From the IMG/VR virus record IMGVR_UViG_3300029944_000009: 61,964 nucleotides of DNA. One strand, 5' to 3'. This document shows positions 1 to 26,382 of the stretch, piece after piece (position 1 is the stretch's first letter; every line of letters starts with the position of its first letter). The stretch comes from a virus. A model generated the notes under the pieces. The model did not search any database. It was not told the origin of the DNA and saw only the letters and a program-made list of their open reading frames with translations. Position numbers and translations under genes: made by a program.

Positions 1-738
1 GCGCGAGCCTCACCGCTCCGGTGCTGGCCGAGGTGACCGGCTCCGTTGTCCTCAGGGAGGGCGCGAGCCTCACCGCTCCGGTGCTGGCCGAGGTGACCGG
101 CTCCGTTGACCTCAGGGAGGGCGCGAGCCTCACCGCTCCGGTGCTGGCCGAGGTGACCGGCTCCGTTGTCCTCAGGGAGGGCGCGAGCCTCACCGCTCCG
201 GTGCTGGCCGAGGTGACCGGCTCCGTTGACCTCAGCCAGGGCGCGAGCCTCACCGCTCCGGTGCTGGCCGAGGTGACCGGCTCCGTTGTCCTCAGGGAGG
301 GCGCGAGCCTCACCGCTCCGGTGCTGGCCGAGGTGACCGGCTCCGTTGTCCTCAGGGAGGGCGCGAGCCTCACCGCTCCGGTGCTGGCCGAGGTGACCGG
401 CTCCGTTGACCTCAGGGAGGGCGCCAGCCTCACCGCTCCGGTGCTGGCGAAGACCGGCTCCGTTGTCCTCAGCCGGGGCGCCAGCCTCACCGCTCCGGTG
501 CTGGCGAAGACCGGCTACGTTGTCCTCAGCCAGGGCGCCAGCCTCACCGCTCCGGTGCTGGCGAAGACCGGCTCCGTTGACCTCAGGGAGGGCGCCAGCC
601 TCACCGCTCCGGTGCTGGCCGAGGTGACCGGCTACGTTGACCTCAGCCAGGGCGCGAGCCTCACCGCTCCGGTGCTGGCGAAGACCGGCTCCGTTGACCT
701 CAGCCAGGGCGCGAGCCTCACCGCTCCGGTGCTGGCGA
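1..738 (+). repeat. Coding tandem repeat with 60-bp and 57-bp units, nearly identical at the nucleotide level
   Basis: Seven 60-bp units (1-420) are followed by mixed 57/60-bp units. Differences are confined to a few codons. Confidence 0.95.
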
Positions 739-1464: not shown

Positions 1465-1642
1465 CCTGCTAATACTCTGCCTGATCGCCTACGTGGTGTA
1501 TTTCATCCTAGGCATGCTGCCGCTACCGCCGCCTATAAAGCAGGTCGTGATGATCATATTCGCGGTTATTGTGCTGATCTTCCTGCTCGATATGCTGCTC
1601 GGCGGGGGCGTCTCCAGCCTTGACTGGCGATTGCCGCGTTAG
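1445..1642 (+). CDS. Small membrane protein with two predicted TM helices
   Basis: ATG at 1445 is preceded by AAAGGAG with a 6-nt spacer. The sequence is hydrophobic (MLSLLISLLILCLIAYVVYFILG...). Confidence 0.55.
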   Translation: MLSLLISLLILCLIAYVVYFILGMLPLPPPIKQVVMIIFAVIVLIFLLDMLLGGGVSSLDWRLPR

Positions 1643-4902: not shown

Positions 4903-6072
4903 TCAGTCCTCAGTTGCTAAATCGCGGAAATCCGCCGCGCCGGATACGATAGTAATGGCTGGCCGCTTGTCATCGGCGGGAGCCACACTTGGTTTGCCCT
5001 CGGTCTGTGAGGTCAATGCGAGCGCCTGGGCAAGCACACCGGGGGAAGTCTTCTTAAGCAGCTTTTCCGCGCCCGCAGGCGAGATCAGCTTCCTGGTATA
5101 GACCTGGTCCGCAGAGACGTTGGCTCCCAGCAATATGCCAACAACCTGCTCCTCATTGGTCCACGAGCGGTTACCGCGCTTGCCTTCCACCAGCTTGAAG
5201 CCGGGTACGGGATGGTTAGCAAATAGCCTCCGCTCAGTCTCAGCGCGCACGGCGTTGCACCAATCCTCAATCAGCCCAACTTTGGCCATGGCAGAACCTA
5301 GATCAGCTTCCGGCACCGCAGCAAGATCACCGAAACCCGCCATAAGCGTAGCGTCAGCTTCAGCACGCAAGGCCGGGCAAACGGCCTTGGCCTTACAAAA
5401 CCGGCACTGTTTTTCGCCCGGCACCAAGGTGTTGTTGCCTTTAACGATAGCCTGGGCGGCTTCCTTAACCTCAAGGCCGAAAGCGCGCAATTCGTCCACG
5501 GCCATCGTATGTGATGAGTAGTTGTTTATGCGGGGTTGAATGATCGTCATCTTGACCACGTCGAATGGACCGAGAGCCTCGTACTGGTCCAGCGCAGCCA
5601 GACCATAGATGCCCATCTGCTCATTGCCTTGGGCGTCAACCTTGACGCCCATGCCATATTTAAGATCGATAATCTCCAGGATACGATCTTTCACAACCAC
5701 CGCATCCGCCGTGCCGAAACTGTCTGGCACGGCTACCACAGCGCTGAACTCGACCCTTTGCTCGATAAGCAACTGGCCGCCTTCCGCCGCTTCATTGACG
5801 CGATCAACGTAGTTTTGAACGTGGTCAGCCATGCTCTGGTCAACCACCCAAATGGTCTTCATGCCATCGGCCAGGATTTCCTCACCGATATACTCTTCGG
5901 CTGTTACACCGATATCGCGGTACGTCAGAACGCTGGCGGCCAGATGGTGTGCTGCTGTGCCCTCATCCGCGTAGATACTGCCCCCATCCGGCCGCGTGGC
6001 TTCAAGGGCCAGCGAACCCGGACAAGGCATCCACCGGTGCGCAGCGGACGGGGAAAGCCGGGCGTGGCTCAC
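4903..6072 (-). CDS. DUF2800 / PD-(D/E)XK (Cas4-like) nuclease
   Basis: N-terminus [19 protein letters not shown], an IDLKYG core, and a C-terminal Cys cluster [11 protein letters not shown]. Confidence 0.8.
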
Positions 6073-6449
6073 TCGCCGACGGCTTTCTTCAATGCCTCAA
6101 CCAGCTCCGGCCATTTGGCTTCCGGCACTTCGCGCGCGTTCGGGGCTCCAAAGTCCGCCAGAAGATCGGTGGCGGCTTGCTTACCGCTATCGCGGACAAG
6201 CTGCAGAACGCGCTTGGCGATGTCGTTCTGATAATCGATCTTGGGCGCGGCCTTGGTTTCTAGCTCGCCGGCGCCCGTATCGGGGGAGACAGTGGTGGCT
6301 TTCACCTCGGCCGGTGCTTCCACAACTCTGCTCTTGCCGTTGGTTTTAGGTGTGGGCGCTGCGGCTTGGGCCGCGCGTACATATCCCAGTTCGGCCATGT
6401 AAGCATCGAGCTCACCCTGGGTGGTAACGGTAATTTTCAGTTCAATCAT
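6069..6449 (-). CDS. Hypothetical protein
   Basis: Overlap-coupled ORF in the minus-strand operon. Confidence 0.6.
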
Positions 6450-6451
6450 GT

Positions 6452-6745
6452 TCAGTTGCTCCGGTTAGGTGTGTTTTTCAGTTCGTCGATAGCGGCTTCA
6501 AGGTCCTCGATAGCGGCTTCAAGGTCCTCGATGCGCTCGTTGGCCTTGTCAAGATCGCAGTAGAGGTCCTCGCGTTCAATTTTTAGCTGTCTGATGTCAT
6601 CCCGCGCCTCATCCACGATCTCTGAATAGGACGATGCTTCGTGCAGCAATTCGCCCAAGGCGATTGTCAACTCATCGTCGCTATGCTTCGCGAGATCGAG
6701 GATGTTAGGTGTGCACATGGCTTTGTAGTCGGATGCCAGTTTCAT
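6452..6745 (-). CDS. Hypothetical coiled-coil protein with a duplicated heptad (IEDLEAA x2)
   Basis: SD sequence GGAGGAGAAAC lies upstream. A 21-bp tandem duplication is at 6486-6527. Confidence 0.6.
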   Translation of the reverse strand: MKLASDYKAMCTPNILDLAKHSDDELTIALGELLHEASSYSEIVDEARDDIRQLKIEREDLYCDLDKANERIEDLEAAIEDLEAAIDELKNTPNRSN

Positions 6746-6792
6746 GTTTCAGTTTCTCCTCCGGTAGTTATACAAGCGTCGCTTGGTGTTCG

Positions 6793-8853
6793 TCAACGAT
6801 AAGAATTAAAATAAACGATGCCGTTTTCTACCTCGCAATAGGCGTCCTTGCCTTTGCCTAGCCCCTGTATTATCGCGGCAACGCGGCTCTCGCGCGGCAA
6901 CGGTACTTCTCCGGCCAAGGGTTGTGTCATGGTGCTACGGCAGTGCGCGGAGAACTTCTCTAAATCCCAAGACATTGTGCCTTGTATGATTTCCTGCGCC
7001 ATGATCTCCACAATATGCTGCTCAAGTCTCCCGAGCCTGCGGCCGACGGCTCTCGGGCCTTTGGCCGCCGGCGCAGTAGCTACCGGCAATTCAGATTTTT
7101 CGACGACGCATGTGCTAACCATCTCGCCGCTTTCGCCGCCTGTTACCGGCATCCATATTTGCGTTAGCTTAAAGCCGACTTTCACATCGTCTTCGCCATC
7201 CTTCTGCTTCGTGGTCCTAAGCTGGTGCCGCTCGCCTTCGCGCGATATCTCGATCTGGGTGTCTAGCGCGCCGGTGTATGCTGTGCTGCCGCGCGCCCCT
7301 TTTGTTATATCCTTGCCGGTGTGGTGCAGCACAATGCCCATGGCCGAAATGCTATCGACCATTTTTTCTATAGCATCGATCACTTCGCCAGCGTCCTTTG
7401 AGGAATTCTCGTCCGTGCCGGTAGACACGCGCGCCAGCGTATCGAAAATAACCGCATCATATCCGCCATGGTGCTCGGTGACATCGTCTATGGTTTTCTT
7501 TAGCTCGCGGAGATCCTCAGGGGACCTGACGTTAGGGCTGTCGAATATGAAATGCACGCCTAGGTCTGTGCCCAACGGAATTTTATTGGCGAGGTAATAG
7601 CCCACGATGCGCTTCTGCATACCGAGCTGGCTTTCGGCCGCGATATACAGCACCTTCATTTTCTTGGTGGCCCGGCCTTGCCACTCAATACCGCGCCCGA
7701 TGGCGAAAGCCATGTCCAATATAATGAATGTTTTGCCGGAGCCAGGCGGCCCGTAGACCATGGCAAATTTCGCCTTGGGCAATATCTTGTCTATCAGCCA
7801 AACCTCACGCCTGACTTTCAGCGGCGAACCGAATATCTTAATCTTGCCATCGAACCCCGCTGTATTCAGCGAGGGCTCCTCCACGGTAAGAGGGCGCAGG
7901 CCGGAAGCCGCGATGACAAAGCGCGCGGGGTCCGCGTCCTGGGCCATTTTAATGACCGTTGCAAACGATATCGGCCTACCTTCGCGCGGCCGGGAGAAGC
8001 TAGCCCATTTACGGTCTAGATCTTCAGAGCCCTTGTACTTACTGCCCCCAGTAGACCACTCGCGCCATATCTCAAGGCCCTCCTCATCGCCATTGTACTG
8101 ATGGTGCAGGGCCATACCCACGTTGCGCCACTCGGGGTATGAGAGATCCGGATCCAAGGCGTTGACGTATTCGCGCACCTGATCGTCGGTGGCGTCGGCC
8201 GGCGGGGCATAATCGAAAAAGCCGCCTCTATCGTCATGGGTCTGCTTCTCCTGCGCGCCGAAGCGTTTTACACACAGTGCAACCGCGTGCTCGGGCGCGT
8301 CATCCAGATGGTTTTCTAGGCCGAGCAGGCCCGTTTCCTCAAGCGCGTTTCCGGTTACCGTGACAAAACCCTTAGCCGAAAACGCTTCGAAGCCGTACGG
8401 CCAAAGCGCGCTCTTGCTGGTCTTGCCGTCGCCGAGATTGCCCTTCACGAAGGCGCGGATACCGCGCGTCGAGGGGCTGTACTCCGCGTACGTGCTGCTA
8501 ATAATGTCTGCTACTTCCTGCGGCAGACGCCCGTCGTCCGGGTCGACGCAATCGTCGAAGTCCAGCGCGGTAATGCCCCAGTCAGGCAGCATGGCAAGGC
8601 CAACGCCAGACAGACCTTGCCGCACCGCCGCTGCTTTAGCTACGTCAAACGTTACCAGTTGCGCGCGGTCCTGCGGCGTGCCGTTGCCGCCTTTACGGAC
8701 TTTCCCGTTTGCGTAGTACGGGATTTTATCCAGCTTGCCGCTACCATCTTCCTTCGGGATCGCCTTCCACATGAGCCAGCCGGGCAGCTCGCGAAGCGCC
8801 GTCGGAACCTCAATCTGCCGTATCGCAGGTGCTATAGATATCACAGCAGACAT
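6793..8853 (-). CDS. Bifunctional primase-polymerase (Prim-Pol, PriCT-like) fused to a RecA/DnaB-like helicase
   Basis: ITALDFDDC (Prim-Pol D.D motif), YPEWRNVGMALHH (PriCT-like), Walker A GPPGSGKT, and a HHTGKD motif. Confidence 0.9.
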   Translation of the reverse strand: MSAVISIAPAIRQIEVPTALRELPGWLMWKAIPKEDGSGKLDKIPYYANGKVRKGGNGTPQDRAQLVTFDVAKAAAVRQGLSGVGLAMLPDWGITALDFDDCVDPDDGRLPQEVADIISSTYAEYSPSTRGIRAFVKGNLGDGKTSKSALWPYGFEAFSAKGFVTVTGNALEETGLLGLENHLDDAPEHAVALCVKRFGAQEKQTHDDRGGFFDYAPPADATDDQVREYVNALDPDLSYPEWRNVGMALHHQYNGDEEGLEIWREWSTGGSKYKGSEDLDRKWASFSRPREGRPISFATVIKMAQDADPARFVIAASGLRPLTVEEPSLNTAGFDGKIKIFGSPLKVRREVWLIDKILPKAKFAMVYGPPGSGKTFIILDMAFAIGRGIEWQGRATKKMKVLYIAAESQLGMQKRIVGYYLANKIPLGTDLGVHFIFDSPNVRSPEDLRELKKTIDDVTEHHGGYDAVIFDTLARVSTGTDENSSKDAGEVIDAIEKMVDSISAMGIVLHHTGKDITKGARGSTAYTGALDTQIEISREGERHQLRTTKQKDGEDDVKVGFKLTQIWMPVTGGESGEMVSTCVVEKSELPVATAPAAKGPRAVGRRLGRLEQHIVEIMAQEIIQGTMSWDLEKFSAHCRSTMTQPLAGEVPLPRESRVAAIIQGLGKGKDAYCEVENGIVYFNSYR

Positions 8854-10568: not shown

Positions 10569-11501
10569 TCACAGTACATGCTTCCGGATGTTGTCGCGGA
10601 TCGCGATTGCCTCATCGACCCACTCGATGGCCAGAGAGACAGCTTGGTTATCTTCTGCCTTGTCATCCGGCCTGATCATCGAGAACCATTGCTCACGCGG
10701 TGAGTAGGGGGAGGCGTGGAATGCCACGGCACCGACTTCGATGGTTGTCCCATCGTACTCTTCAATCCCACGCGCCTTAGCCAAGGTGCCGGCGAGGCAC
10801 GAGCATTCACCAGAGTACGTCGAGCCATCAACGCGGCCCTCTACTAGAGCAAGGCGGAGCGCCTCCAGCTCATCCGGCAATCGCAAGACTTCGGCAATAA
10901 GGTCTTGTTTGAAATAGCCCAGGTTCGCACTGCTCAGGTTCGCACCGCCCAGGTCCGCACCGCGCAGGTTCGCAGCGCGCAGGTCCGCACCGTCCAGGTA
11001 CGCACCGTCCAGGTACGCACCGTCCAGGTACGCACCGCCCAGGTTCGCACTGCTCAGGTTCGCACCGTCCAGGTACGCATCGCCCAGGTCCGCACCGCGC
11101 AGGTTCGCACCGCTCAGGTTCGCACCGCGCAGGTTCGCACCGCCCAGGTCCGCACCGCGCAGGTTCGCACCGCTCAGGTTCGCACCGTCCAGGTACGCAT
11201 CGCCCAGGTCCGCACCGCGCAGGTTCGCACCGCTCAGGTTCGCACCGCGCAGGTTCGCACCGCGCAGGTCCGCACCGCGCAGGTCCGCACCGCGCAGGTC
11301 CGCACCGCGCAGGTCCGCACCGCGCAGGTCCGCACCGCGCAGGTCCGCAGCGCTCAGGTCCGCGTTCTCGTTACAAGCCTTCTTGATGGCATACCCGAGC
11401 TGATCGCGATGAGGCTTGGCGGCGATCTCGGGCGGGAGAACGCATTCGTACTGAGTTGCGCTGTTCCATCGATTTTGGATTTTGAAAGATACGTCGGTCA
11501 T
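10569..11501 (-). CDS. Pentapeptide-repeat protein with unique N- and C-terminal domains
   Basis: About 28 consecutive A(D/N)L(R/S/G)G-type pentads. GAGGGGGA SD upstream. The C-terminal domain carries GECSCLAGT. Confidence 0.9.
10918..11365 (-). repeat. 15-bp (pentapeptide) coding tandem repeat, including about 6 identical consecutive units
   Basis: caggtccgcaccgcg is repeated perfectly across about 11266-11340. Confidence 0.9.
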
Positions 11502-15895: not shown

Positions 15896-18466
15896 ATGGG
15901 CACAATCGAGATCAACGGGCAGAAGATAAACGCAGCTGCTTCGCTTATTGAGCTCGACCGCGTAGAATGCCGCGAAAGCCTCATGGCGTTTGTCAAGCGC
16001 TCTTGGCACATCATCGAGCCCGGCCAGCCTTACACCGAGGGCTGGCACCTGCATGGCATAGCGGAGCATCTGGAAGCGATCACCGACGAATTCGTTATGG
16101 ATGACGGCACGCTTTACAACCGGCTGCTGGCGAACATCCCGCCCGGCACCATGAAATCGCTAATGGTGAGCGTATTCTGGCCGGCGTGGGAGTGGGGTCC
16201 GTGCAATATGCCGCATTTGCGGTACATCACCGCGTCACACTCCCTGGACATCGCCATCCGCGATACCCTCCGCATGCGGCGCCTCGTGCAATCTGATTGG
16301 TACATGACGCGGTGGCCGCACGTGCGTATGACCTCAGATCAAAACGCCAAGACCAATTTCGAGAACACCATGGGCGGCTGGCGCCAGGCAGCGGCATCCG
16401 GCGGGATCACCGGCAAGCGCGGAGACCGCGTGATTATCGATGACCCGCTATCCGTGGACGACGGCAACTCCGACCAAGTCAGAGGCTCTGTCAACACCTG
16501 GTTCCGCGAGGCCGTACCTCTGCGCGTCAATAACCCGGATAAATCGGCCATTGTCGTGATCATGCAGCGGCTCCACGAGGACGATGTATCCGGCGTCATT
16601 CTTGAGGACAAGCTGGGGTATGACCACCTTTGCTTGCCTATGCGGTATGCCTCGTGGCGCGCGGGCACAAAGACCAAGATCGGGTACGAAGATCCCCGGC
16701 GCGAGGAAGGCCAGCTATTGTTTCCGGCCCGCTTCCCGCTGCACGTCGTCGAACGCGATGAGAAGATCCTAGGCCCGTACGCCACGGCCGGGCAGTTCGC
16801 CCAGGAGCCAGCGCCGCGCGGCGGCGGCATTATCAAGAATGAATGGTGGCAGCTCTGGGAGGGTAAGGAGTACCCGCCCTTCGATTATATCATCGGCAGC
16901 CTGGATACCGCCTTTACAGAGAAAACAGAGAACGACCCAAGCGCCATGACCGTGTGGGGCGTGTTTACCGGCGCCAGCGCGCTGTATGCCGCCAACTGGG
17001 CATCGCCCGGGGGCCGCATGCTCCGGCAAGAGGGCAGCGAGGAGATGTTCGATCTCGGACAGACCGTGCGCACCAAGCACAGCGCGGTTGGCGGAGACGC
17101 CCCGCGCGTCATGCTCGCCTATGCCTGGGCGGAGCGCTTGCCGTTGCATGAGCTGGTGCAGAAAGTGGCGAAGACCTGCAAAGACATGAAAGTCGATAAG
17201 CTGCTGATCGAGAACAAAGCCAGCGGCTACTCAGTAGCGCAGGAAATGCGGCGGCTCTTCGGGCACGAGGACTGGGGCGTACAGCTATTGGACCCCAAAG
17301 GCATGGACAAGCTATCGCGGCTGTATGCAGTGCAACATCTCTTTGCCGAGGGCATGATCTACGCGCCTGATAAAGTGTGGGCACAGCAAGTAATTCAAGA
17401 GGTTAGCGTGTTCCCGAAAGGGAAACATGACGATCTGTGCCTCGTGGCGGGGACAAAAATAGCTACCAGGCGGGGTTCTATCCCGATAGAGAGGGTAACC
17501 ACTGCCGACGAGGTGCTAACACCCCTTGGCTGGCGCAAAGTTGAAGCAGCTGGGTGCACGGGGGCAAAGCCTGTTGTTAGTGCTAAGTCATTGACAGGAA
17601 CGGCTAATCATCCTGTATTTACGCTTGACAACATGTATCAGCCATTGGATAGTATAAACCAGGAATCTTTGACGGTAGGGTTGGGTTTATGCGATTTAGT
17701 GAAGACACAGCGCCGGAGGAAATTGTTTTCGACGGTGTCACATACCGCCGCATGGGTGGAAAGCGGCGGTACTACCTCAGCCAATCCAGGAGCAACGAGG
17801 GGCGGCGCAGAGCTAAAGGGCTGCACGTTGCGATCTGGGAAAAAAACGCCGGCCGCGCTGTTCCACCGAAGCACGACGTACACCACAGAGATGGTGACGT
17901 GTTTAATTTTAGCATTGATAATCTGGAGTGCTTACCGGAAGGCGTGCATAGGCGCATGCCTAAGAAAATTGATCGGGAAGCGGTTGCGGCCAACCTGGCG
18001 CGCGTACGCCCCCTCGCCAGTGCGTGGCACAAGTCAGAAGAGGGGCGGGATTGGCATCGCCGGGTTAGCGCTCTTTCCCTGGTTAAGGCTAGAGAGGCGC
18101 GGTGCGTTGGAGATGAGCGTGTTATCCTCGGCGTGCGGCCTTGCGATTGGTGTGGGGCCGAGTTTGAGTTCAGAAGCGCGCGAAAGATTATGTGCTCGCC
18201 CGCATGCCAGCTACAAAAGTCCGCTTATAAACTTGGAAAGTGCAAGCACGCACACCCCTATTACACAGCCCGTGTACAATCTGACAGTTGAGGGCGCGCA
18301 CTGCTACTACGCGAACGGCATGTTAGTGCACAACTGCGACACCGTTTCGCAAGGAATAAGCCATTTGCGGCAGCTTGGCTTGCTCACCAGAGCACCGGAA
18401 TGGGCGGCCGAAGTCACGGGCAGCATGCAATTCAACCACTCACCAGGGCCGATATACCCGGTTTGA
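15896..18466 (+). CDS. terL: Terminase large subunit interrupted by an intein
   Basis: Deviant P-loop PPGTMKS, Walker B VIIDDP, nuclease motifs LDTAF and KGKHDDL|...|CDTVSQG. The host frame is continuous across the insertion. Confidence 0.9.
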   Translation: MGTIEINGQKINAAASLIELDRVECRESLMAFVKRSWHIIEPGQPYTEGWHLHGIAEHLEAITDEFVMDDGTLYNRLLANIPPGTMKSLMVSVFWPAWEWGPCNMPHLRYITASHSLDIAIRDTLRMRRLVQSDWYMTRWPHVRMTSDQNAKTNFENTMGGWRQAAASGGITGKRGDRVIIDDPLSVDDGNSDQVRGSVNTWFREAVPLRVNNPDKSAIVVIMQRLHEDDVSGVILEDKLGYDHLCLPMRYASWRAGTKTKIGYEDPRREEGQLLFPARFPLHVVERDEKILGPYATAGQFAQEPAPRGGGIIKNEWWQLWEGKEYPPFDYIIGSLDTAFTEKTENDPSAMTVWGVFTGASALYAANWASPGGRMLRQEGSEEMFDLGQTVRTKHSAVGGDAPRVMLAYAWAERLPLHELVQKVAKTCKDMKVDKLLIENKASGYSVAQEMRRLFGHEDWGVQLLDPKGMDKLSRLYAVQHLFAEGMIYAPDKVWAQQVIQEVSVFPKGKHDDLCLVAGTKIATRRGSIPIERVTTADEVLTPLGWRKVEAAGCTGAKPVVSAKSLTGTANHPVFTLDNMYQPLDSINQESLTVGLGLCDLVKTQRRRKLFSTVSHTAAWVESGGTTSANPGATRGGAELKGCTLRSGKKTPAALFHRSTTYTTEMVTCLILALIIWSAYRKACIGACLRKLIGKRLRPTWRAYAPSPVRGTSQKRGGIGIAGLALFPWLRLERRGALEMSVLSSACGLAIGVGPSLSSEARERLCARPHASYKSPLINLESASTHTPITQPVYNLTVEGAHCYYANGMLVHNCDTVSQGISHLRQLGLLTRAPEWAAEVTGSMQFNHSPGPIYPV
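17438..18334 (+). mobile_element. Intein of 299 codons inserted in terL
   Basis: Cys1 in CLVAGTKIAT (block A), TANHPVF (block B), VYNLTVEGAHCYYANGMLVHN followed by the +1 Cys (blocks F/G). Confidence 0.85.
17689..18291 (+). CDS. HNH homing endonuclease nested inside the terL intein in a different reading frame
   Basis: LHVAIWEKNAGRAVPPKHDVHHRDGDVFNFSIDNLECL is an HNH motif. A CDWCG...CSPAC zinc ribbon follows. The frame differs from terL (17689 mod 3 = 1, versus 2 for terL). Confidence 0.8.
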   Translation: MRFSEDTAPEEIVFDGVTYRRMGGKRRYYLSQSRSNEGRRRAKGLHVAIWEKNAGRAVPPKHDVHHRDGDVFNFSIDNLECLPEGVHRRMPKKIDREAVAANLARVRPLASAWHKSEEGRDWHRRVSALSLVKAREARCVGDERVILGVRPCDWCGAEFEFRSARKIMCSPACQLQKSAYKLGKCKHAHPYYTARVQSDS

Positions 18467-18526: not shown

Positions 18527-20995
18527 ATGGCTGGATTGAGCCCGAATATCCGACTGGTCGACAGCACCCCGCCGCCATCACCTCAGCAGGCCCGCGACGT
18601 GACAGTTGCCCAGAACGACGACCCGGTTAACGGTGAAATCCGCAATGGCAACGGCGATCTCCTCCGCATAGAGCATGATGACGGCTCCATCACCATCACC
18701 ACTGACGGCACGCCACTTGAGAAGGCAACCAAGACGGGGCCGGGCGGCTGGTGGGATAATCTCGTAGATGAAATAGACGCCATGGAGCTCACGCGCATGG
18801 CTGAAGAGATATTGCGCGGCATCCGCGACGACATCACCTCCCGGCAAGAGTGGATTGACGACCGCGCCAACGGCATGCGCTTGCTGGGCCTGAAGCTGGA
18901 CCTGCCGGGCCTCGGCGGTAGCGCGGACGGAGCCCCAGTGGAGGGCATTAGCCGGGTGCGCCACCCCCTGCTGCTCGAAGCGGTGCTCCGTTTTCAGGCC
19001 AACGCGAGGTCTGAACTGTTGCCTACGGACGGGCCAGTGAAGGTTCGCGACGACGGCAACGGCGACGACGTCAACCAGGACCGGCTAGCGGATTACCTCG
19101 AAAAAGACCTCAACCACTACCTAACCAGCACGGCATCGGAGTATTATCCCGACACAGACCGCATGTTGCTTATGCTCGGGTTTGGGGGCACCAGCTTCAA
19201 GAAGGTGCACCAATGCCCGTTGCGCAACCGGCCGGTGTCGGAGACCGTGGACGCCGAAGACTTGATCGTCAACAACAGCGCCACGGATTTGAAGAACGCC
19301 ACCCGCGTGACGCACCGCATTAGCTTGAAGCCAAGCACGGTGAAGCGCATGCAGATCCTCGGGGTTTACCGAGATATCCCGCTGCACACCCCAAACATGG
19401 CTCAGCTCGATGCCGTGCAGATCGAGCGCAAGGCGCAAGAGGGCATTTCGATCAACTCCATGAACCCGGAAGACCGCGACCGGGAGATTTACGAGTGCTA
19501 TTGTGAGCTGGATATCAAGGGTTACGAGCACGAGATGAAGGGTAAGCCCACCGGGCTAGAGATACCCTACCGCGTCACCATCGATGTATCATCGCGGCAG
19601 GTTTTATCTGTCGTGCGCAACTACGAGGAAGATACCAAAGAGCTACCCGAAGCGCGCACGACCTTCATCAAGTACACGTTTGTGCCGGGCTTTGGCTTCT
19701 ATGACATCGGCCTCCTGGCCATTCTGGGAAACACAACCAATGCTATTACAGCTGCTTGGCGGGAGCTTCTTGACGCTGGCATGTATTCTAATTTCCCTGG
19801 TTTCCTTATGGCGGATAGCGGATCTCGTCAAAACACGAACATCTTCCGTGTACCGCCGGGCGGTGGCGCTCCCGTCAAGACCAACGGAATGCCCATCCGG
19901 GACGCCATCATGCCCCTTCCGTATCAGCCGCCGCAACCAGCTCTTATGCAGCTTGTCAACGACATCGCCCAAACTGGCATGCGAATTGGCGGCACTAGCG
20001 AGCAAGCAGTGGGCGAGGGGCGGGCGGACGCGCCAGTAGGCACGACGCTGGCGATGATCGAGCAGGCCACCAAGGTCATGAATTCCGTGCACAAGCGGTT
20101 GCATGCATCTCAGGCCCAAGAGTTCCAGCTCTTGGCCAAAGTGTTCAAAGAGCACCCCAAGAGCTTCTGGCAGCAGAACCGCAAGCCGGCGTATAAATGG
20201 GATGAGCAAACCTTCCTCGACGCCCTCGAAGACGCGGATATCGTGCCGCAAGCTGACCCCAACACGGCCTCGCATGGGCAGCGCGTGATGAAGATCATGG
20301 CGCTGAAGCAACTGCAGGCGGCCCAGCCCTCGCTCTACGATCCGATCGCGATTGACCGCGCGGCCCTCGTCGCACTCGGCTTCAACAACCCCGATCAGTT
20401 CCTTGCACCACCCCAGGCCCAAGCCTCGCCGCCACCAGAGCTGCAGCAGATCCAGGCTCAGATCCAGCAAGGCAACATCGTGGCCGGGGCGCAGAAGACG
20501 GCGGCAGACGCCCGTATGCTCGATGCGCAGACTAAGCGCGCGGAAGCCCAGGCGAAGATACAAGGCGGCCTGGCGGGCGGCGAAGGCAAGAGCACCGGAC
20601 CGAGCTCGGCCGAGCTGGAGCTCAAGCAAGCCGATTTGAAGACCAAAGCCGCCGGCCTCGCGCTGCAGCACCAGAACACGGAGCAGGAGACTGCTTCGCG
20701 CACGGCGGACCGCGAGGCGGATCTGAAGATACAGCAAATGAAACTGGAAGCAGATACCCAGAACAAGCACGCGGACCGGCAGCATGAGGTGCTCATGGGC
20801 GCGCTCACCGCGCACAAAGAGAACACACAACAGGCGGCGGAGCTAAGCGAGCACGAGCAGGACAGGCGGGCGGATATCGCCAAGACACTGGCCGGGAAAG
20901 TGATGGATGGGCGCAACGCCCAGGCGAAAGCCGCCGCGACGCCAAAACTAAAAGCACCCGGGCCGGTGAAACCGAGAAAGGCGAAACTGGTATGA
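18527..20995 (+). CDS. Portal protein (putative) with a Q/A/K-rich C-terminal extension
   Basis: Position directly after terL, its size, and the AGGAG SD. No motif-level proof. Confidence 0.7.
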   Translation: MAGLSPNIRLVDSTPPPSPQQARDVTVAQNDDPVNGEIRNGNGDLLRIEHDDGSITITTDGTPLEKATKTGPGGWWDNLVDEIDAMELTRMAEEILRGIRDDITSRQEWIDDRANGMRLLGLKLDLPGLGGSADGAPVEGISRVRHPLLLEAVLRFQANARSELLPTDGPVKVRDDGNGDDVNQDRLADYLEKDLNHYLTSTASEYYPDTDRMLLMLGFGGTSFKKVHQCPLRNRPVSETVDAEDLIVNNSATDLKNATRVTHRISLKPSTVKRMQILGVYRDIPLHTPNMAQLDAVQIERKAQEGISINSMNPEDRDREIYECYCELDIKGYEHEMKGKPTGLEIPYRVTIDVSSRQVLSVVRNYEEDTKELPEARTTFIKYTFVPGFGFYDIGLLAILGNTTNAITAAWRELLDAGMYSNFPGFLMADSGSRQNTNIFRVPPGGGAPVKTNGMPIRDAIMPLPYQPPQPALMQLVNDIAQTGMRIGGTSEQAVGEGRADAPVGTTLAMIEQATKVMNSVHKRLHASQAQEFQLLAKVFKEHPKSFWQQNRKPAYKWDEQTFLDALEDADIVPQADPNTASHGQRVMKIMALKQLQAAQPSLYDPIAIDRAALVALGFNNPDQFLAPPQAQASPPPELQQIQAQIQQGNIVAGAQKTAADARMLDAQTKRAEAQAKIQGGLAGGEGKSTGPSSAELELKQADLKTKAAGLALQHQNTEQETASRTADREADLKIQQMKLEADTQNKHADRQHEVLMGALTAHKENTQQAAELSEHEQDRRADIAKTLAGKVMDGRNAQAKAAATPKLKAPGPVKPRKAKLV

Positions 20996-21141: not shown

Positions 21142-21392
21142 GCGGCGCGGAAATCCTCAAGCCGTTCGGGTCTTACCGCACGCCCGGTATCGACGAGAAC
21201 GTGGTCGAAACACTGGAAAACCTCTTAGAGCGAGCGGTATCCGGTGAGATTACCGGCGTAGCCGTGGCTTATATGACCGGGGGCAACCACGCCTGCTCCG
21301 AAGTGGCTTTCGGCAGCGCTGGCTACGCCGCGATGCTGGGGGCTACGGTAGCCATGCAGGCGACAATGCTTGAGGCGTGGAAAAACCTATGA
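21138..21392 (+). CDS. Hypothetical protein
   Basis: GTGA-coupled start inside track ORF 21054..21392. Confidence 0.45.
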   Translation: MSGAEILKPFGSYRTPGIDENVVETLENLLERAVSGEITGVAVAYMTGGNHACSEVAFGSAGYAAMLGATVAMQATMLEAWKNL

Positions 21393-23455
21393 ACGTCGCC
21401 GAACGCGCTTTGCACGCAGCCCGCCGTACGTACGCCGATGGCGGTGGCACAGATCCACGTGGAGCAAGCCAGCAACTCAGCCCTTCTGGCCTTTATAGCC
21501 AAGGTGCTGCGACCGCTGCTGCGTTGCCGCAGGCCAAGGGGCCGCCGCAGCAGATGCTGGGCATGCTGCAGAACCAGGGCGTTAAACCAGCCGAGCTGGA
21601 GAACGCCGGGTTGCCGGGAGCGCTTGGCGATCAACATGCGGTTACACGCGAGCAGCTCGCGGCTCATTTGCAAGGGGCGATGCCGGATATCCAAGAAGAG
21701 GTGCGCGGGTACAACCCAAGCGCCCCCGTGCAAGAGGTACCCGAGGACGCAGTAAGCAGCTGGGTAGAGAATAGGGCGCGCGAACGCGGCGGCCAGCACT
21801 TTGATATGATGGGGGGTGAGGAGCAACAGCACCACCGCCGCGCGGCGGGGCGCGAGTTCGACGAAAACTTTCAGGAAGACCCCGAGTTCTCGCATCAATT
21901 TACCGGCGGCCCAAAGCCGACTAAGTACGAAGAGTACACGCTGCCCGGAGGCGAGAACTACCGCGAACTGCTCTTGCATACAAAACCAGACCGCTTCGGG
22001 GAGCAATTAGCACATCGCTCCGGCCATTGGGATACGCCAAACGTCCTTGCGCATTTGCGTTTGTCAGACCGCACGGACCCCGAAGGCAAGAAGGTACTGC
22101 ATATCGAGGAGCTGCAGAGCGATTGGGGCCAAGAGGGCCGGAAGAAGGGCTTTGCGGAACCGGGAAAGCCCGGCGTGCCCAAAGGCCCGTATGTCGGATC
22201 CACGCAAGGTTGGACTGAGCTAGGGTTAAAGCGCGCCCTCGTTGAAGCGGCGCGCGGCGGCTACGATAAGATGGTCTGGACACCTGGGCAAGAACAAGCA
22301 GATAGATATGATCTGAGCAAGAAAATAAGCCACATTGTCCACCTCAACAACGGCGACGGCACGTACTACGCAAGCGCTGTGACCCACGGCGTCGATGGTG
22401 AGCCGGTTCATCTCGGCAATTACCTGACGCCGGAGCAGCTGGAAAACCACGTCGGCAAGGACGTCGCGCACAAGATCGTAGCGGGCCAAGGCGAAGACCT
22501 CGGCCGTGGCCTCAAGAAGCTCGGCGCCCACGATCTAAGCGTTGGCGGCGAGGGCATGAAGTCCTATTACGACAAGGTGCTGCCCAATACCCTTAGCAAG
22601 ATCACAAAGAAGCTAGACCCAACTGTGCGGCCGGAGATGAAAGAGCTATCGGCCGGCGAAGCAACGCCCAATGCGTTTCAGACCTGGGCAAGACAGAACG
22701 GCGATATGCGGCGGTCTGATCAGCTCGGCCAAGCTTGGCATCTCAAGGGCCGGGATGATCCCGCTGTCACGCAGTTCCTCGATCAGCACAAAGGCCGTGA
22801 GCTGCCGGGCATCGATATAACACCCACGATGCGAGCCAAGATCCTGCGCGGCTTGCCCGCGTTCAAACGGGGCGGCGCGATCGAGCCCACCGAAGCGCAG
22901 AAAGCCGCCGGCAATTACCAGAAGGAGCATATTTCCTTCCAGGGCTTGCCAATCAGCATTGAGACGAAAAAAGGTGCAGAACGCTCTGGCGTTGACGCTG
23001 AAGGCAAGCGCTGGCGCTGCGTGCTGCCGTACGATTATGGCTATATCAAGCGCACCGAGGGCGCCGATGGCGAGCACGTTGACGTGTGTATCGGCCCTCA
23101 CAAAGATAGTCAGAGGGTCTTTGTCGTCAACCAGAACGACCACGAGACGGGGGAGTTTGATGAGCATAAAATCATGCTGGGCTACAACACGCGGGATCAG
23201 GCTGAAGCGGCATACAAAGCGGGTTTCTCGGACGGCAAAGGCCATTTGCGCATGGGCCATCTCGTTGTAGCCACTCTTGAAGATTTGAAAGACTGGCTCA
23301 AACACGACGATACGACGCGCGAGAACCCACGTCAGAAACACTGGCAACACGATACGAATGCAGCTAAAAGCGACTTCGTAGACGCTGCCCTTCGCGTAAC
23401 AAACCACGGCGCGCATCCGCCCGCAGCCGTTTCTCTCGCCCGGCGGATGAAGTAA
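21389..23455 (+). CDS. Large head-associated protein with a C-terminal pyrophosphatase-like beta-barrel segment (tentative)
   Basis: ATGA-coupled ATG at 21389. IEELQSDWGQEGRKKG motif. The C-terminal YDYGYIKRTEGADGEHVDVCIGP...VFVVNQ...FDEHKIMLGY resembles PPase-like domains seen in phage head modules. Confidence 0.6.
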   Translation: MNVAERALHAARRTYADGGGTDPRGASQQLSPSGLYSQGAATAAALPQAKGPPQQMLGMLQNQGVKPAELENAGLPGALGDQHAVTREQLAAHLQGAMPDIQEEVRGYNPSAPVQEVPEDAVSSWVENRARERGGQHFDMMGGEEQQHHRRAAGREFDENFQEDPEFSHQFTGGPKPTKYEEYTLPGGENYRELLLHTKPDRFGEQLAHRSGHWDTPNVLAHLRLSDRTDPEGKKVLHIEELQSDWGQEGRKKGFAEPGKPGVPKGPYVGSTQGWTELGLKRALVEAARGGYDKMVWTPGQEQADRYDLSKKISHIVHLNNGDGTYYASAVTHGVDGEPVHLGNYLTPEQLENHVGKDVAHKIVAGQGEDLGRGLKKLGAHDLSVGGEGMKSYYDKVLPNTLSKITKKLDPTVRPEMKELSAGEATPNAFQTWARQNGDMRRSDQLGQAWHLKGRDDPAVTQFLDQHKGRELPGIDITPTMRAKILRGLPAFKRGGAIEPTEAQKAAGNYQKEHISFQGLPISIETKKGAERSGVDAEGKRWRCVLPYDYGYIKRTEGADGEHVDVCIGPHKDSQRVFVVNQNDHETGEFDEHKIMLGYNTRDQAEAAYKAGFSDGKGHLRMGHLVVATLEDLKDWLKHDDTTRENPRQKHWQHDTNAAKSDFVDAALRVTNHGAHPPAAVSLARRMK

Positions 23456-23467
23456 CGGAGAGCTCAC

Positions 23468-24466
23468 ATGTCTGAGTATGATGCCAAGAAAATTCGCGAA
23501 GAGCGGAAGAAGAAAGCAGAAGAGCGCGGCGGGGGCGAAAACACCAAGAAGGTTGACGCCTCCGATTGGACCCCGGCCGAGCCCCTGAACACCGAAGCCA
23601 AGACCGGCCAGCGTCCCGTTTCCAAGCGCCAGTACAAGCGCGGTGGGCACGTCGAAGGTAAGGAAGCGCACAAGCATGCTGGCAAGAAACCGCGCATGGG
23701 CCGCAAGGATGGCGGCAAAGCGGATTCCGAGGTGTGGGATAGCTACATGAACCGCGATGGCCGCGAAGCCAATCACGAGATCGCCGAGCCACACGAAGGT
23801 GGTTTCAAGCGCGGCGGCCGAATGCACCGCGACTCGGGCGGCCAGACACAAGGCGCCAACCCAGTGCCGACCTCCGCGCTCAATTTGAATGGCCGTAATA
23901 TCGGTGCCGGAGCCTTGAAGAAGGGCGGCCGGGCTGGCCACGCCATGGGCGGCCATCCTGACGAGAAGCAGGACCGCAAGCTGGTTGACGAGATGGTCAA
24001 GAAGGATTGCCGCACCGGCAAGAAGCACGGTGGCGAAGCCAAAGGCAATTACGAAGGCGGCACGCGGCCAACTGGCGGGCGTCTCGCGCGCAAAGACGGC
24101 GGCCGGTCTGGAAAAGGCAAGACGAATATCATCATCTCGGTTAACCCACACGGGCAAGGCCAGGATATGCAGCAAGGCGCTCCGATGATGCGGCCGCCTG
24201 CTCCTCCGCCGTCTCCGGTGCCGATGGCGCCCCCGGGCGGTGCGGGGATGCCTCCGCCGCAAGGCGGCGCGGGTATGCCGATGCCTCCGAGTGGTGCTGG
24301 TGCGCCTCCGGCTATGGGCGGAGCGCCTGGAATGTTGCCGCCGGGCATCCCCCCGCAGCTACCGCGCAAGAGCGGCGGGCGTACGGAGCGGTATGAGGGT
24401 GGCGCCGGAGGCGGCGAGGGCCGTCTGCAGAAGATCAAGAACTACGGCCTGAAGCCGCCGGGCTAA
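23468..24466 (+). CDS. Highly basic Lys/Arg/Gly/His-rich protein with a Pro/Gly/Met-rich tract. Probable internal head or DNA-associated protein.
   Basis: GGAG SD upstream. Seven copies of a [KR]xGG[RH]...GG motif and a PPAPPPSPVPMAPPGGAGMPPPQGGAGMPMPP tract. Confidence 0.7.
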   Translation: MSEYDAKKIREERKKKAEERGGGENTKKVDASDWTPAEPLNTEAKTGQRPVSKRQYKRGGHVEGKEAHKHAGKKPRMGRKDGGKADSEVWDSYMNRDGREANHEIAEPHEGGFKRGGRMHRDSGGQTQGANPVPTSALNLNGRNIGAGALKKGGRAGHAMGGHPDEKQDRKLVDEMVKKDCRTGKKHGGEAKGNYEGGTRPTGGRLARKDGGRSGKGKTNIIISVNPHGQGQDMQQGAPMMRPPAPPPSPVPMAPPGGAGMPPPQGGAGMPMPPSGAGAPPAMGGAPGMLPPGIPPQLPRKSGGRTERYEGGAGGGEGRLQKIKNYGLKPPG

Positions 24467-24575: not shown

Positions 24576-24773
24576 TTGCTCACTTTCAATCACCGCGTCA
24601 CGCATGAGTTTGGCAAATTGATCAAAGCCAGGATGGATCACATCACGGAAAGCCTGATCGATGGCAGCTCGCTGCCTGAGATGCAGATCCGCCGGCTGCA
24701 AGGTGAGGCGGCTGGGTTGCGGTTGGCAGAGGATTTGCTGGCGGATGCCATAGCGATTTGTGAGGGCGAATGA
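24576..24773 (+). CDS. Hypothetical protein
   Basis: TTG start 5 nt after GGAGA. ATGA-coupled to the next gene. Confidence 0.5.
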   Translation: MLTFNHRVTHEFGKLIKARMDHITESLIDGSSLPEMQIRRLQGEAAGLRLAEDLLADAIAICEGE

Positions 24774-25918
24774 GCGTTTATTATAAGCCACGGGTATCAG
24801 AACAGGGCGTATTGCTCGGTGGTACGGGGCCGTATACGTTGCCGCAGGCGGCAGCGCCCGGCGGTTATCAGACATTCAACACCGCGCTTACCAGCGGCAC
24901 GCAGTACATGGTGTGCATCCTCGATAGCGTGGCGTTCTCCTGGGAGTTGTCGGTCTTCACATTCACGTCGCCAGCCACGATCACCCGCACGACGTTCCAC
25001 GCCAGCTCAACTGGATCCCCGGTAAATTTCAGCACCACGAACACGCTGGTCATCAGCGTAGACCACCCGGAAGCAACGCCGGATAGCTCAGTTGCGTACT
25101 CCTCCGCGCTGGCCTCGTTGAACGCAAATGCAGTGCTTGATCCCAGCATTGGTGGCACCGGCACAGCGGTTAACACGTTCGGCAAAATTCCATCCCTCGG
25201 CTCGTTGCAGAACGGTTTTGTCAATCTGACATCAGCTACGACGCTGACCGCCGCGCAAGGCGGGTGCTTAATAGAACTCGGCGGAGCCAGCGCGCTCACC
25301 GTGACGTTTCCAACTGTTGTGAATGATGGGGGCCTTGTCTACCACTTCTTCAACTACGGCACCGCCTCTTGGACGCTGGCTGCGGGTGTGTCCGCCCTTA
25401 TCTACGGCAACCTTGGCACCGCTGTGTCATCAGTGCTGCTCGCGCCGCAACAAGTGGTGTACGCCATATGCGACGGGTCAAACTGGCTCGTTATAGCGGA
25501 AGGCTTGCCGCTGATCGGCGCCACGGCCGGGGCCAACGCAGCGGCAGGCAATGTGGGCGAGTATATCAGTTCAACCGTGTCAACGCCCATAGCGATAGCC
25601 AGCAGCACGCCCACGACCATAACCTCAATAACGCTGACACCCGGCGATTGGGATGTCTTCGGGCAGGTTGGCCTAATCAATACCGGGGTAAACATCACCA
25701 TAGCCGTTGCGGGGATAAGCTTGGCCAACAACACGCAGGCGGCAAATACGCAGGTTGCGGTTACCACCGGCCCCAGCATGGGCCAGTTCTCTGCTTCGGT
25801 GCCGCCTCTGCGGGCCAACATCACCACAAGCACGACATATTATCTTGTCGGCAGTCAGCAGTACGCAGCGGGCACCGGGACGGCGGTGGGGTATATCGCA
25901 GCCAGGCGCAGGCGTTAA
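24770..25918 (+). CDS. Fibre-like structural protein, paralogous domain to 52471..53817
   Basis: Thr/Ser/Ala/Gly-rich beta-type sequence. The segment TLTAAQGGCLIELGG...ICDGSNWLV matches ALAAAQSGAFIELTS...LTSDGANWIA in the tail fibre. Confidence 0.65.
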   Translation: MSVYYKPRVSEQGVLLGGTGPYTLPQAAAPGGYQTFNTALTSGTQYMVCILDSVAFSWELSVFTFTSPATITRTTFHASSTGSPVNFSTTNTLVISVDHPEATPDSSVAYSSALASLNANAVLDPSIGGTGTAVNTFGKIPSLGSLQNGFVNLTSATTLTAAQGGCLIELGGASALTVTFPTVVNDGGLVYHFFNYGTASWTLAAGVSALIYGNLGTAVSSVLLAPQQVVYAICDGSNWLVIAEGLPLIGATAGANAAAGNVGEYISSTVSTPIAIASSTPTTITSITLTPGDWDVFGQVGLINTGVNITIAVAGISLANNTQAANTQVAVTTGPSMGQFSASVPPLRANITTSTTYYLVGSQQYAAGTGTAVGYIAARRRR

Positions 25919-25989
25919 GCAGTGCTTGCGAAAAGTCAGAGGTATGGGATAAAGACTTAGAATTACGGATTAACAACGAGGGAAAATAC

Positions 25990-26382
25990 ATGCTTGATCT
26001 GTTAAAAGCGGAAGTTCCACCGCACGAAGAGCTGCGGGAAGATATGGGAGACATTTCCGGTATCGAGGTGTTCAACAACCAGATACTGGTGGCTATCTAT
26101 CTCCGGCCGAACAAGACTAAAGGTGGGATTTTTCTGACCGAAACGACCCGCGATGAAGATAAATGGCAGGGGAAAGTAGGTTTAGTGCTCGCGAAAGGGC
26201 CAACCGCGTTTCAGACCGACGACAGCCCATGGTTTCAGGGCGTAGAACCGGTTGAAGTGGGCCAGTGGGTCTATTTCCGGCCATCTGACGGTCAGGGCCT
26301 GTCGATCAACGGCAAGATGTGCCGTTTGCTGGACGACACGTCGATTCGCGGGCGCCTTGTGCGTCCTGACCAGATCTGGTGA
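25990..26382 (+). CDS. GroES/Cpn10-like co-chaperonin
   Basis: ATG at 25990 after GAGGGA. The pattern ILVAIYLRPNKTKGGIFLTE...QGKVGLVLAKGP...VEVGQWVYF matches the GroES fold signature. Confidence 0.7.
   Translation: MLDLLKAEVPPHEELREDMGDISGIEVFNNQILVAIYLRPNKTKGGIFLTETTRDEDKWQGKVGLVLAKGPTAFQTDDSPWFQGVEPVEVGQWVYFRPSDGQGLSINGKMCRLLDDTSIRGRLVRPDQIW

Follow-up and report, generated by a model that had tools for sequence, protein, structure and literature searches.

The subject of this analysis is an insert in the gene for the large terminase subunit (terL) of a phage represented by the IMG/VR record IMGVR_UViG_3300029944_000009, whose whole stretch of 61,964 nucleotides is referred to as the window. 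The gene forms a single uninterrupted open reading frame (ORF) of 856 amino acids at 15896..18466 on the plus strand, to which all features of this locus belong. The insert (17438..18334) comprises 299 codons in the terL frame and runs from a cysteine (Cys1) to a terminal His-Asn pair. A second ORF of 200 amino acids (17689..18291), shifted to the −1 frame of terL, spans the middle of the insert and codes for a protein of the HNH_3 homing-endonuclease type. We describe the insert as an intein and the second ORF as its homing endonuclease gene (HEG), and we present the evidence for both in turn.

The intein in terL

The intein occupies residues 515-813 of the 856-codon precursor. It is preceded by an N-extein of 514 amino acids (15896..17437), which contains the ATPase domain and most of the nuclease domain and ends in ...FPKGKHDDL, and is followed by the C-extein (18335..18466), which starts with CDTVSQGISHLRQLG... 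and whose first residue is the +1 nucleophile Cys. The N-terminal splicing lobe (17438..17677, intein residues 1-80) holds block A, CLVAGTKIAT (17438..17467, with the Cys1 codon at 17438..17440), and block B, TANHPVF (17600..17620), with the TxxH motif TANH at 17600..17611. The C-terminal splicing lobe (18254..18334, residues 273-299) overlaps the 3′ end of the HEG with its 5′ part; it contains blocks F/G, VYNLTVEGAHCYYANGMLVHN (18272..18334), directly before the +1 Cys. The junction to the C-extein reads ...LVHN-C (18323..18337), where the hyphen, here and below, marks the border between intein and extein. Between both lobes the terL frame runs through the HEG region (17678..18253, residues 81-272) as a stop-free tether. 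The criteria of a class 1 intein, namely Cys1, the block B TxxH, the C-terminal His-Asn and the +1 Cys, are present in the window. An earlier note on this DNA, made from its letters only, had described terL as split by a 299-codon element with blocks A, B and F/G, and each of these parts was recovered in place.

The earlier note had also suggested an alignment to intein-free terL. The closest TerL among GenBank phages is the intein-free protein of MW202675.1 with 60% identity to that of the window, and it proved to be colinear across the junction. In a BLASTP comparison of the window precursor with this protein the match stops at residue 515 and restarts at residue 814. MW202675.1 reads ...SVFPKGKNDDL-VDTVSMGIGHLRQIGLLTRAPE..., which is colinear with ...SVFPKGKHDDL[intein]CDTVSQGISHLRQLGLLTRAPE... 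in the window and leads to a junction consensus of ...FPKGK(H/N)DDL-(C/V)DTVS.... The C-extein is 65% identical to the C-terminus of the MW202675.1 TerL, where the +1 Cys is a Val. The intein-less terL site type of MW202675.1-like phages is ...AAGAACGATGATCTGGTGGATACC..., and the window terL junction written as an intein-less sequence is ...AAAGGGAAACATGACGATCTG-TGCGACACCGTTTCG.... Because the precursor without residues 515-813 is colinear with an intein-free homologue, excision of the intein restores a contiguous TerL. The spliced form was assigned to the TerL profile phrog_38 of the PHROGs collection (E=5e-76) in one unbroken alignment of residues 21-529 that passes through the junction. Pfam models gave no terminase match on the full precursor. 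A megablast search of terL against phages found no match, i.e. there is no close sequenced relative.

The insertion point is located approximately 40 residues before the TerL C-terminus in a motif of the HDD..D type, which is also present in intein-free relatives (GAHDDAADA in L006, NVHDDSPDS in L032). We take this motif to be the last nuclease motif of TerL. As a phmmer search of the spliced TerL against PDB sequences found no match, the position of the insertion in a catalytic motif of the nuclease rests on motif comparison and on general knowledge of terminases.

Recognition of the splicing domain by Pfam is weak. Hint_2 matches the N-terminal end of the insert with 19.8 bits (cutoff 28.4, E=0.001) and Intein_splicing its C-terminal end with 21.8 bits (cutoff 35.8, E=1.7e-4); two distant homologues of the intein have precomputed matches to PF14890/PF13403/PF05203. 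In the AlphaFold2 (AF2) model of the 299-residue intein, residues 1-80 are rich in strands with pLDDT (predicted local distance difference test) values of 63-88, residues 273-299 form strands with values of 61-72, and residues 81-272 reach only 20-48. The first 25 PDB matches of this model in a Foldseek search are 24 inteins and one bacterial intein-like domain (BIL); they include 6bs8, 6qaz gp41-1, 6riy, 7cfv, MsmDnaB and a DnaX mini-intein, with probabilities of 0.9-1.0 and E-values of about 2e-3. According to this model, which is based on a shallow alignment, the folded parts of the host-frame insert would adopt a Hint fold.

The out-of-frame HNH nuclease

The earlier note had placed an HNH nuclease one nucleotide back from the terL frame. 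The corresponding ORF indeed matches HNH_3 (PF13392) with 41.3 bits, well above the cutoff of 24.8 (E=1.2e-10), and its protein is assigned in PHROGs to phrog_15471, HNH endonuclease. The HNH_3 core (approximately 17818..17940) contains His65/His66, Asn78 and His87, of which H66, N78 and H87 do not vary in an alignment of 46 homologues and H65 is almost as constant. A zinc ribbon of the form CxxC...CxxxC (18142..18207) follows, and in the same 46 sequences C152, C155 and C169 are invariant and C173 nearly so; this C-terminal part resembles FCS-type zinc fingers. With the 46-sequence alignment AF2 models the HNH-frame protein at a mean pLDDT of 92.9, and we regard the ORF as a real gene. I-HmuI (1u3e) is the top PDB match of the model in Foldseek (E=0.26, TM-score 0.23-0.25), and the HEG profile finds I-HmuI in the PDB at E=0.27.

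The HEG begins 83 codons into the intein and ends 14.3 codons before its end. Its stop codon, TGA at 18289..18291, lies within the block F codons GTT GAG, as the earlier note had it.

Stop avoidance and selection in the overlap

Across the HEG ORF the terL frame contains no stop codon, and the third frame contains 18. To express this as a probability, synonymous codons were resampled with the HNH protein kept fixed, which yields a stop-free host frame with P=0.0025-0.0027. Within the 17 presumptive genes of the window, the +1 frame is stop-free in 2 out of 6883 windows of 200 codons. The earlier estimate of under 1% by chance thus holds. For phage phiCDHM19 with its GC content of 30%, about ten host-frame stops are expected in the homologous overlap, and none out of 10,000 resamplings was stop-free (P below 1e-4); for phage Highwayman the probability of a stop-free host frame is 0.0007.

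Substitution patterns in both frames, a comparison proposed in the earlier note, were analyzed in 12 pairs of HEG relatives covering a range of divergences, eleven of them nested/nested and one nested/free-standing. Substitutions are concentrated at the third codon position of the HNH frame right to the ends of the ORF. The ratio of nonsynonymous to synonymous substitution (omega) is 0.06-0.2 in the HNH frame, with a value of 0.42 in one near-identical pair that has only 5 nucleotide differences. For the same nucleotides read in the host frame omega is 0.95-1.75 in 10 out of 12 pairs; the other two, which are closely related, gave 0.22 and 0.73. In accordance with this, the window and its relative L007 share 54% amino-acid identity in the HNH frame compared to 33% in the host frame.

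Purifying selection acts in the overlap on the HNH frame only, and the amino-acid sequence of the linker is free of constraint except for the avoidance of stop codons, which is necessary because a stop would kill the essential gene terL. Looking at 117 nested relatives (see below), none was found to have a host-frame stop in the overlap; the earlier note had held that the host frame is kept open by selection and that relatives with host-frame stops would speak for a dead terL. It had also found no recognisable domain in the host-frame peptide, which agrees with pLDDT values below 50 for residues 81-272 and an omega of approximately 1. For the same reasons (pLDDT 20-48, omega ~1) a cryptic domain in the linker was ruled out. 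A homologue search with the host-frame sequence retrieved only 5 proteins, as expected for an unconstrained linker.

Long open frames also occur elsewhere in the window. Two antisense ORFs of 395 and 538 codons (19643..20830 and 22646..24262, both on the minus strand) lie opposite the portal gene and the next structural gene. The GC content of 58.6% in this genome probably accounts for them, and long open frames alone are for this reason weak evidence here. We also considered a third case of dual coding on the plus strand, where a 337-codon ORF (25369..26382) overlaps a tail-fibre-like gene (24770..25918) in another frame over approximately 180 codons. Only its last ~95 residues match a family (GroES-like, phrog_3188), and the candidate was rejected, since the overlap looks like a short GroES-like gene whose frame by chance continues upstream.

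Relatives with the nested arrangement

A tblastn search of GenBank phages with the HNH protein found homologues of 28-41% identity inside the annotated terL of at least four cultured phages: Clostridium (Clostridioides) phage phiCDHM19, Tetrasphaera phage TJE1, Acinetobacter phage Highwayman and Rhodobacteraceae phage LS06-2018-MD07. Each of these four has its HNH ORF in the −1 frame of terL and an open host frame, and the intein ends with ...(V/T)Y(N/D)L.V..H....A...LV(H/S)N-(C/S). If the window is included, the HEG of these five curated loci starts 83-92 codons into the intein and stops either 14.3 or 18.3 codons before its end.

Two larger scans extend this picture. A scan of IMG/VR guided by a profile yielded 451 confirmed relatives, and the best 80 of these were classified: 74 are nested with the host frame at HEG+1, 6 are free-standing, and among these 80 none is nested in another frame or in frame. 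The nested host ORFs have 376-1194 codons, those under approximately 600 codons being interrupted by the end of the contig. A scan of prokaryotic genomes, with one genome per species, confirmed 114 relatives; the best 80 comprise 42 nested in the −1 frame, one nested in another frame, and 37 that are not nested and were taken as free-standing. Altogether there are at least 117 nested relatives. They belong to phages and prophages whose hosts include Firmicutes, Actinobacteria, Proteobacteria, Bacteroidota, Cyanobacteria, Patescibacteria/CPR bacteria and Chloroflexota, as well as several archaeal metagenome-assembled genomes (MAGs).

The residues needed for splicing were surveyed in 109 distinct nested loci. 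Cys1 is present in 104 out of 109, the alignments of the other 5 having stopped short of position 1, and T/SxxH of block B in 103 out of 109. The terminal Asn is found in 103 out of 104 loci (HN in 69, SN in 26), and a +1 Cys, Ser or Thr likewise in 103 out of 104. This conservation bears on the alternative that the insert does not splice at all, so that TerL either tolerates the additional 299 amino acids, as proposed for the ShiLan domain, or is the product of a dead gene. Such a reading would account for Pfam intein matches below threshold and could point to a precedent, an in-frame insertion that does not splice and conceals an HNH in another frame (PMC11855218). It leaves unexplained why about 95% of 109 diverged relatives keep Cys1, T..H, the +1 nucleophile and the Asn at the intein end, and it disagrees with the match of the folded parts of the model to solved inteins and with the interruption of a conserved HDDxxD-type motif near the TerL C-terminus. 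As terL is essential and cultured phages nevertheless carry the element, we regard the absence of splicing as extremely improbable.

A further alternative, already named in the earlier note, is an artefact of sequencing or assembly in which an ordinary HNH intein, originally in frame, was displaced by a pair of compensating indels. Beyond its prior plausibility it can only draw on the old record of phage phiCD119, which has multiple frame breaks in terL. The same offset, HEG start and stop position recur in the five curated loci and the −1 relation in more than 100 independent assemblies; chance would not leave the host frame free of stops, and the codon-position pattern of the substitutions follows the HNH frame to the ends of the ORF. 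The conserved frame relation across independent assemblies rules this explanation out for practical purposes, and its probability is negligible.

Some individual relatives deserve a separate comment. In Clostridium phage phiCD119 (L005, NC_007917.1, 201..2595) terL is divided into three ORFs, with breaks also in the ATPase part, and the nested HEG lacks its N-terminus; the sister phage phiCDHM19 has an intact terL of 799 codons. We rejected phiCD119 as a relative with a broken host frame, since the breaks occur throughout terL and the sister is intact, which suggests that they are probably errors of the 2006 record. The Candidatus Peribacteria MAG JAYVRL010000045.1 (L138) is the only nested relative with the host frame at HEG+2; its intein ends in ...IIVKN-S, and it may have been captured independently or derive from a nested form shifted by an indel. 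In Vibrio phages 1.238.A/B and 1.245.O (H107-H111) the HEG has weak matches (24% identity, E=4e-8) at approximately 5900..6960 of each record, under features annotated as "hedgehog/hint domain protein | terminase large subunit", and these are possibly more distant members of the nested architecture.

Translation of the nuclease

The initiation region of the window HEG (17655..17691) contains a Shine-Dalgarno (SD)-like tract, tagggttggg, the ATG at 17689, a predicted hairpin and a heptamer discussed below. In 57 out of 58 distinct nested loci an ATG, GTG or TTG is present 8-23 codons upstream of the conserved F.G motif. GGAG or GAGG occurs at positions −18 to −5 in 33 out of 57 HEG starts (58%) compared to 18 out of 188 control ATGs of the same frame (10%; Fisher p=3e-13). 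Because the start codons are kept and SD motifs are enriched, independent initiation can, at the level of sequence, be regarded as a conserved feature of the family of HEGs in terL inteins. This supports the statement of the earlier note that the nuclease is made separately.

The heptamer offers another route. It has been considered that the HNH protein is produced by programmed −1 frameshifting from the terL frame, leading to a fusion of N-extein, N-terminal intein part and HNH, and that the constant −1 relation reflects this mechanism. A canonical slippery heptamer, G_GGT_TTA (17683..17689), is indeed present in the terL zero frame at the HEG ATG, relative L008 has A_AAT_TTA at the equivalent position, and all 117 terL-intein cases show the −1 relation. 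A heptamer of the X_XXY_YYZ kind is found in the open upstream stretch of only 5 out of 58 distinct relatives, though, and for this reason we treat the one in the window as a probable coincidence. RNA folding revealed no convincing stimulatory structure at 5-9 nucleotides downstream of the window heptamer. An own start codon in 57 out of 58 loci and the six-fold enrichment of SD motifs also disfavor frameshifting, as does the +1 frame of the nested HEG in the helicase gene (see below). The constant frame is simply explained if the relatives descend from one homologous composite, and we judge frameshifting to be highly improbable.

The hairpin predicted by RNA folding (17655..17689) would enclose the SD-like tract as well as the A of the ATG, with z=−2.06 for the whole 121-nucleotide stretch. 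It resembles RNA hairpins described upstream of the start of other phage HEGs (PMC2677866), where they sequester the ribosome-binding site (RBS). One could speculate that translation of terL is coupled to initiation of the HEG, e.g. by ribosomes melting the predicted hairpin.

Mobility and origin of the nuclease gene

The closest HEG relative in IMG/VR, with 56% identity, is free-standing and located directly after an intein-less terL (L006, IMGVR_UViG_3300050821_002893). It is flanked by a direct repeat of 79 nucleotides (574..652 and 1539..1617, 76% identity), the second copy of which recodes the last ~25 residues of TerL with mostly synonymous changes. Other free-standing copies are found between terL and portal or away from the terminase (L089). 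MW202675.1, the closest terL homologue, has neither intein nor HEG nearby. The distribution is hence sporadic, with the HEG absent from the closest terL homologue and free-standing copies elsewhere.

The neighborhood of terminase genes raises the question whether the nested HNH protein is an accessory nuclease that acts in packaging together with the terminase, like gp74 of HK97, and is kept within terL for co-expression. HNH genes next to terminase genes are known in cos phages (PMC3592412), the free-standing relatives adjoin terL or are situated between terL and portal, and purifying selection on the HNH frame would be expected as well. This has to be set against the closest terL homologue, which at 60% identity has neither intein nor nearby HNH, which indicates that this TerL lineage packages without HNH, and against members of the HEG family that stand free and away from the terminase (L089). 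The domain itself is HNH_3, of the I-HmuI-type family typical of HEGs, and the hallmarks of a mobile HEG are present: an intein at a conserved catalytic motif, a patchy distribution, and a recoded duplication of the terL 3′ end beside one copy. A role in packaging is therefore very unlikely in our view.

The most likely origin, as suggested by the sequence relationships, is that a HEG targeting terL, at first free-standing beside this gene, entered a mini-intein where nucleases are usually inserted and that the composite then spread by homing. The frame relation would be constant among relatives because the composite spread as a unit and was inherited as such. Dassa et al. 2009 (PMC2677866) and the Gogarten group have put forward a general scenario of this kind, with a free-standing HEG entering a mini-intein.

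A second element in the helicase gene

The earlier note had pointed to a recurrence of the arrangement in the helicase gene at 54075..54983, and these coordinates are exact. The gene for an SNF2-type DNA helicase (53814..56087, minus strand) matches SNF2-rel_dom and DEAD as well as phrog_62 (E=9.5e-142), the latter match being split around the insert. The second intein (54075..54983, minus strand) has 303 codons and reads CLHPETEV ... EVFISHN-S. Its HEG ORF (54140..54769, minus strand) encodes 209 amino acids in the +1 frame relative to the helicase, with a start region of gtagaGG-N6-ATG, and belongs to a different HNH family (phrog_3377, E=9.5e-41). HEGs of the phrog_3377 type have relatives in 916 phage records; those listed are separately annotated and mostly free-standing. 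The probability that the host frame of the helicase intein is open by chance is below 5e-5 as estimated by resampling. Two IMG/VR relatives of 54% and 44% identity (L086 and L087) share the intein, the nesting and the frame of the helicase element. Judged by these features, the window phage carries two independent composites of one architecture.

Proposed mechanism

We consider it very probable that the terL element is a two-gene unit, made up of a small class-1 intein and a separate HEG in the −1 frame over its middle. Ribosomes would read terL through the insert and thus produce a precursor of N-extein, an N lobe of ~80 amino acids, a linker of ~190, a C lobe of ~27 and the C-extein. The two lobes may associate into a Hint fold similar to the halves of a split intein, excise the 299-residue insert and join ...KHDDL to CDTVSQ..., by which TerL would be restored near its C-terminal nuclease motif. 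Separate initiation at the internal ATG (17689) would yield a 22-kDa endonuclease with HNH_3 domain and zinc ribbon. This endonuclease could cut intein-less terL alleles during co-infection, whereupon repair would copy intein and HEG into the cut allele (homing). Actual splicing, separate translation in the window phage, the cleavage target and the origin of the element are deduced from sequence and models.

One must keep in mind that several observations speak against this interpretation. The Pfam intein models remain under their gathering cutoffs at both ends of the insert (18-22 bits compared to 28-36), and the AF2 model of the intein, built from a six-sequence alignment, is of low confidence overall with a mean pLDDT of 45. 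The HNH model resembles I-HmuI in structure without reaching significance (E=0.26). The SD sequence upstream of the window ATG at 17689 is weak (tagggttggg; tagggttgggtttATG), and the canonical −1 slippery heptamer ends precisely on the A of this ATG. Finally, the free-standing relatives adjoin terminase genes, which is also the place of packaging-accessory HNH proteins.

Comparison with known systems

The earlier note had assumed that known HNH or LAGLIDADG inteins carry their nuclease in frame. This does not hold: canonical in-frame HNH inteins are known (Dalgaard 1997, as cited in later work), but out-of-frame and antisense HEGs have been published as well. Homologues of homing endonucleases in alternate ORFs of inteins were proposed in 1998 (Gorbalenya, as cited in later papers), and further cases were added in 2025-26.

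The most similar system is presented in a preprint on actinophage inteins (bioRxiv 10.1101/2025.01.02.630785), which describes endonuclease VII-like homing endonucleases in "frame 3" of the same strand in inteins, many of them in terL. As in the window, a mini-intein holds the endonuclease between its splicing blocks on the same strand in "frame 3" (corresponding to −1), the host frame is open, and its in-frame translation is without recognisable structure; the authors likewise infer an invasion by a free-standing endonuclease. The nucleases differ: those of the actinophages are endonuclease VII-like (IPR004211), while the window HEG is HNH_3/I-HmuI-like with FCS-like zinc ribbons, and its Pfam match is HNH_3 and not Endonuclease_7. 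In tblastn searches no actinophage of the SEA-PHAGES type was found in all 29 records matched by the window HEG or in the 40 best of 455 records matched by the TJE1 HEG. The preprint considers such inteins rare, covers only actinophages in its survey, and predicts that these elements are under-annotated. Unlike in that survey, the family of the window has at least 117 nested members from many bacterial phyla and archaeal MAGs.

For the cyanobacterial dnaX intein an out-of-frame LAGLIDADG homing endonuclease is reported, with low dN/dS in the endonuclease frame and raised dN/dS in the extein frame where the two overlap (bioRxiv 10.64898/2026.09.14.751524, which credits Gorbalenya 1998 with the first notice of it). 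The overlapping-frame endonuclease, the dN/dS signature and the proposed secondary invasion of a mini-intein are common to both cases. The dnaX case concerns a LAGLIDADG enzyme in the +2 ORF of a cellular gene; the window element is an HNH enzyme in the −1 frame of a phage gene.

In fractured genes a free-standing HEG with its own expression signals lies where endonucleases are canonically inserted, between both halves of a split intein, the N part having about 88-105 and the C part about 33-54 amino acids, and phage terminase and helicase genes are among the examples given (Dassa et al. 2009, PMC2677866). Those genes consist of two ORFs that rely on trans-splicing. In the window, by contrast, the host frame is open through the HEG, and cis-splicing with a long tether is to be expected.

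The ShiLan domain of a phage methylase is described as an in-frame insertion that hides an out-of-frame HNH, with an internal start few codons in and a stop at the very end (PMC11855218). It shares with the window a hidden HNH ORF in an alternate frame and a host frame without stops. According to that description it has no detectable splicing domain and is thought to stay in a non-essential protein, whereas the window element has intein blocks and resides in an essential gene. The LAGLIDADG TerL inteins of mycobacteriophages, for which splicing and endonuclease activity are demonstrated (Kelley et al. 2016, PMC5050341), also occur in phage terL at conserved functional motifs. Their nuclease is in frame, and their seven sites are all in the N-terminal ATPase domain; the window insertion is approximately 40 residues from the TerL C-terminus.

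An HNH_3 terL-intein family was not found in the literature searched, and an incomplete literature search also retrieved nothing that links inteins with phiCDHM19, TJE1 or other carriers. The architecture as such is already known and has recently been described (2025-26). What appears to be new are the HNH_3 family, its size and breadth, the conservation of its −1 frame and of its RBS, and the finding of two elements in one genome. Tentatively, and at slightly less than even confidence, we propose that the window terL element represents a lineage of "bicistronic" inteins that is ancient, very widespread and so far undescribed, in which an HNH_3 nuclease is locked in the −1 frame with its own RBS and the read-through is selected only to remain stop-free.

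Other genes in the window

Two further genes were noticed. Just downstream of portal, 21377..23455 (plus strand) encodes a 692-residue protein with a C-terminal InPase domain (PF18823, E=1.3e-48). In PHROGs this domain forms part of giant proteins of the virion or its interior, some of them DarB-like, and the product may be an ejected or internal head protein. In the arm with the replication genes, 10569..11501 (minus strand) encodes a 310-residue pentapeptide-repeat protein (PF00805, E=4e-52). Proteins of the pentapeptide-repeat type can be DNA mimics.

Implications

At such loci gene callers predict a single long gene, for a "terminase" or a helicase, and overlook the nuclease nested in it, and other annotations would speak of a "decaying" or "mini" intein. 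More than 100 public loci examined here share this unannotated overlap, including terL of phiCDHM19. From a practical point of view, a mini-intein that splices across an arbitrary tether of ~190 residues, together with a number of new terL- and helicase-specific HNH nucleases, could serve protein engineering and phage genome editing. If our interpretation is true, the element would also be a naturally occurring system in which cis-splicing over a long unstructured tether can be tested. It represents a clean natural case of dual coding, in which one frame is selected for its amino acids and the other only for the avoidance of stops.

The HEG lineage links three states, as it is free-standing beside terL, nested out of frame, or absent. 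This makes the model of "splicing domain first, nuclease invades later" testable with real intermediates. Current models regard the out-of-frame state as a passing stage between a free-standing HEG and an in-frame intein nuclease. Its long retention argues against quick decay or a shift into frame; if true, the composite with overlapping frames would be an evolutionarily stable end state rather than a short-lived intermediate.

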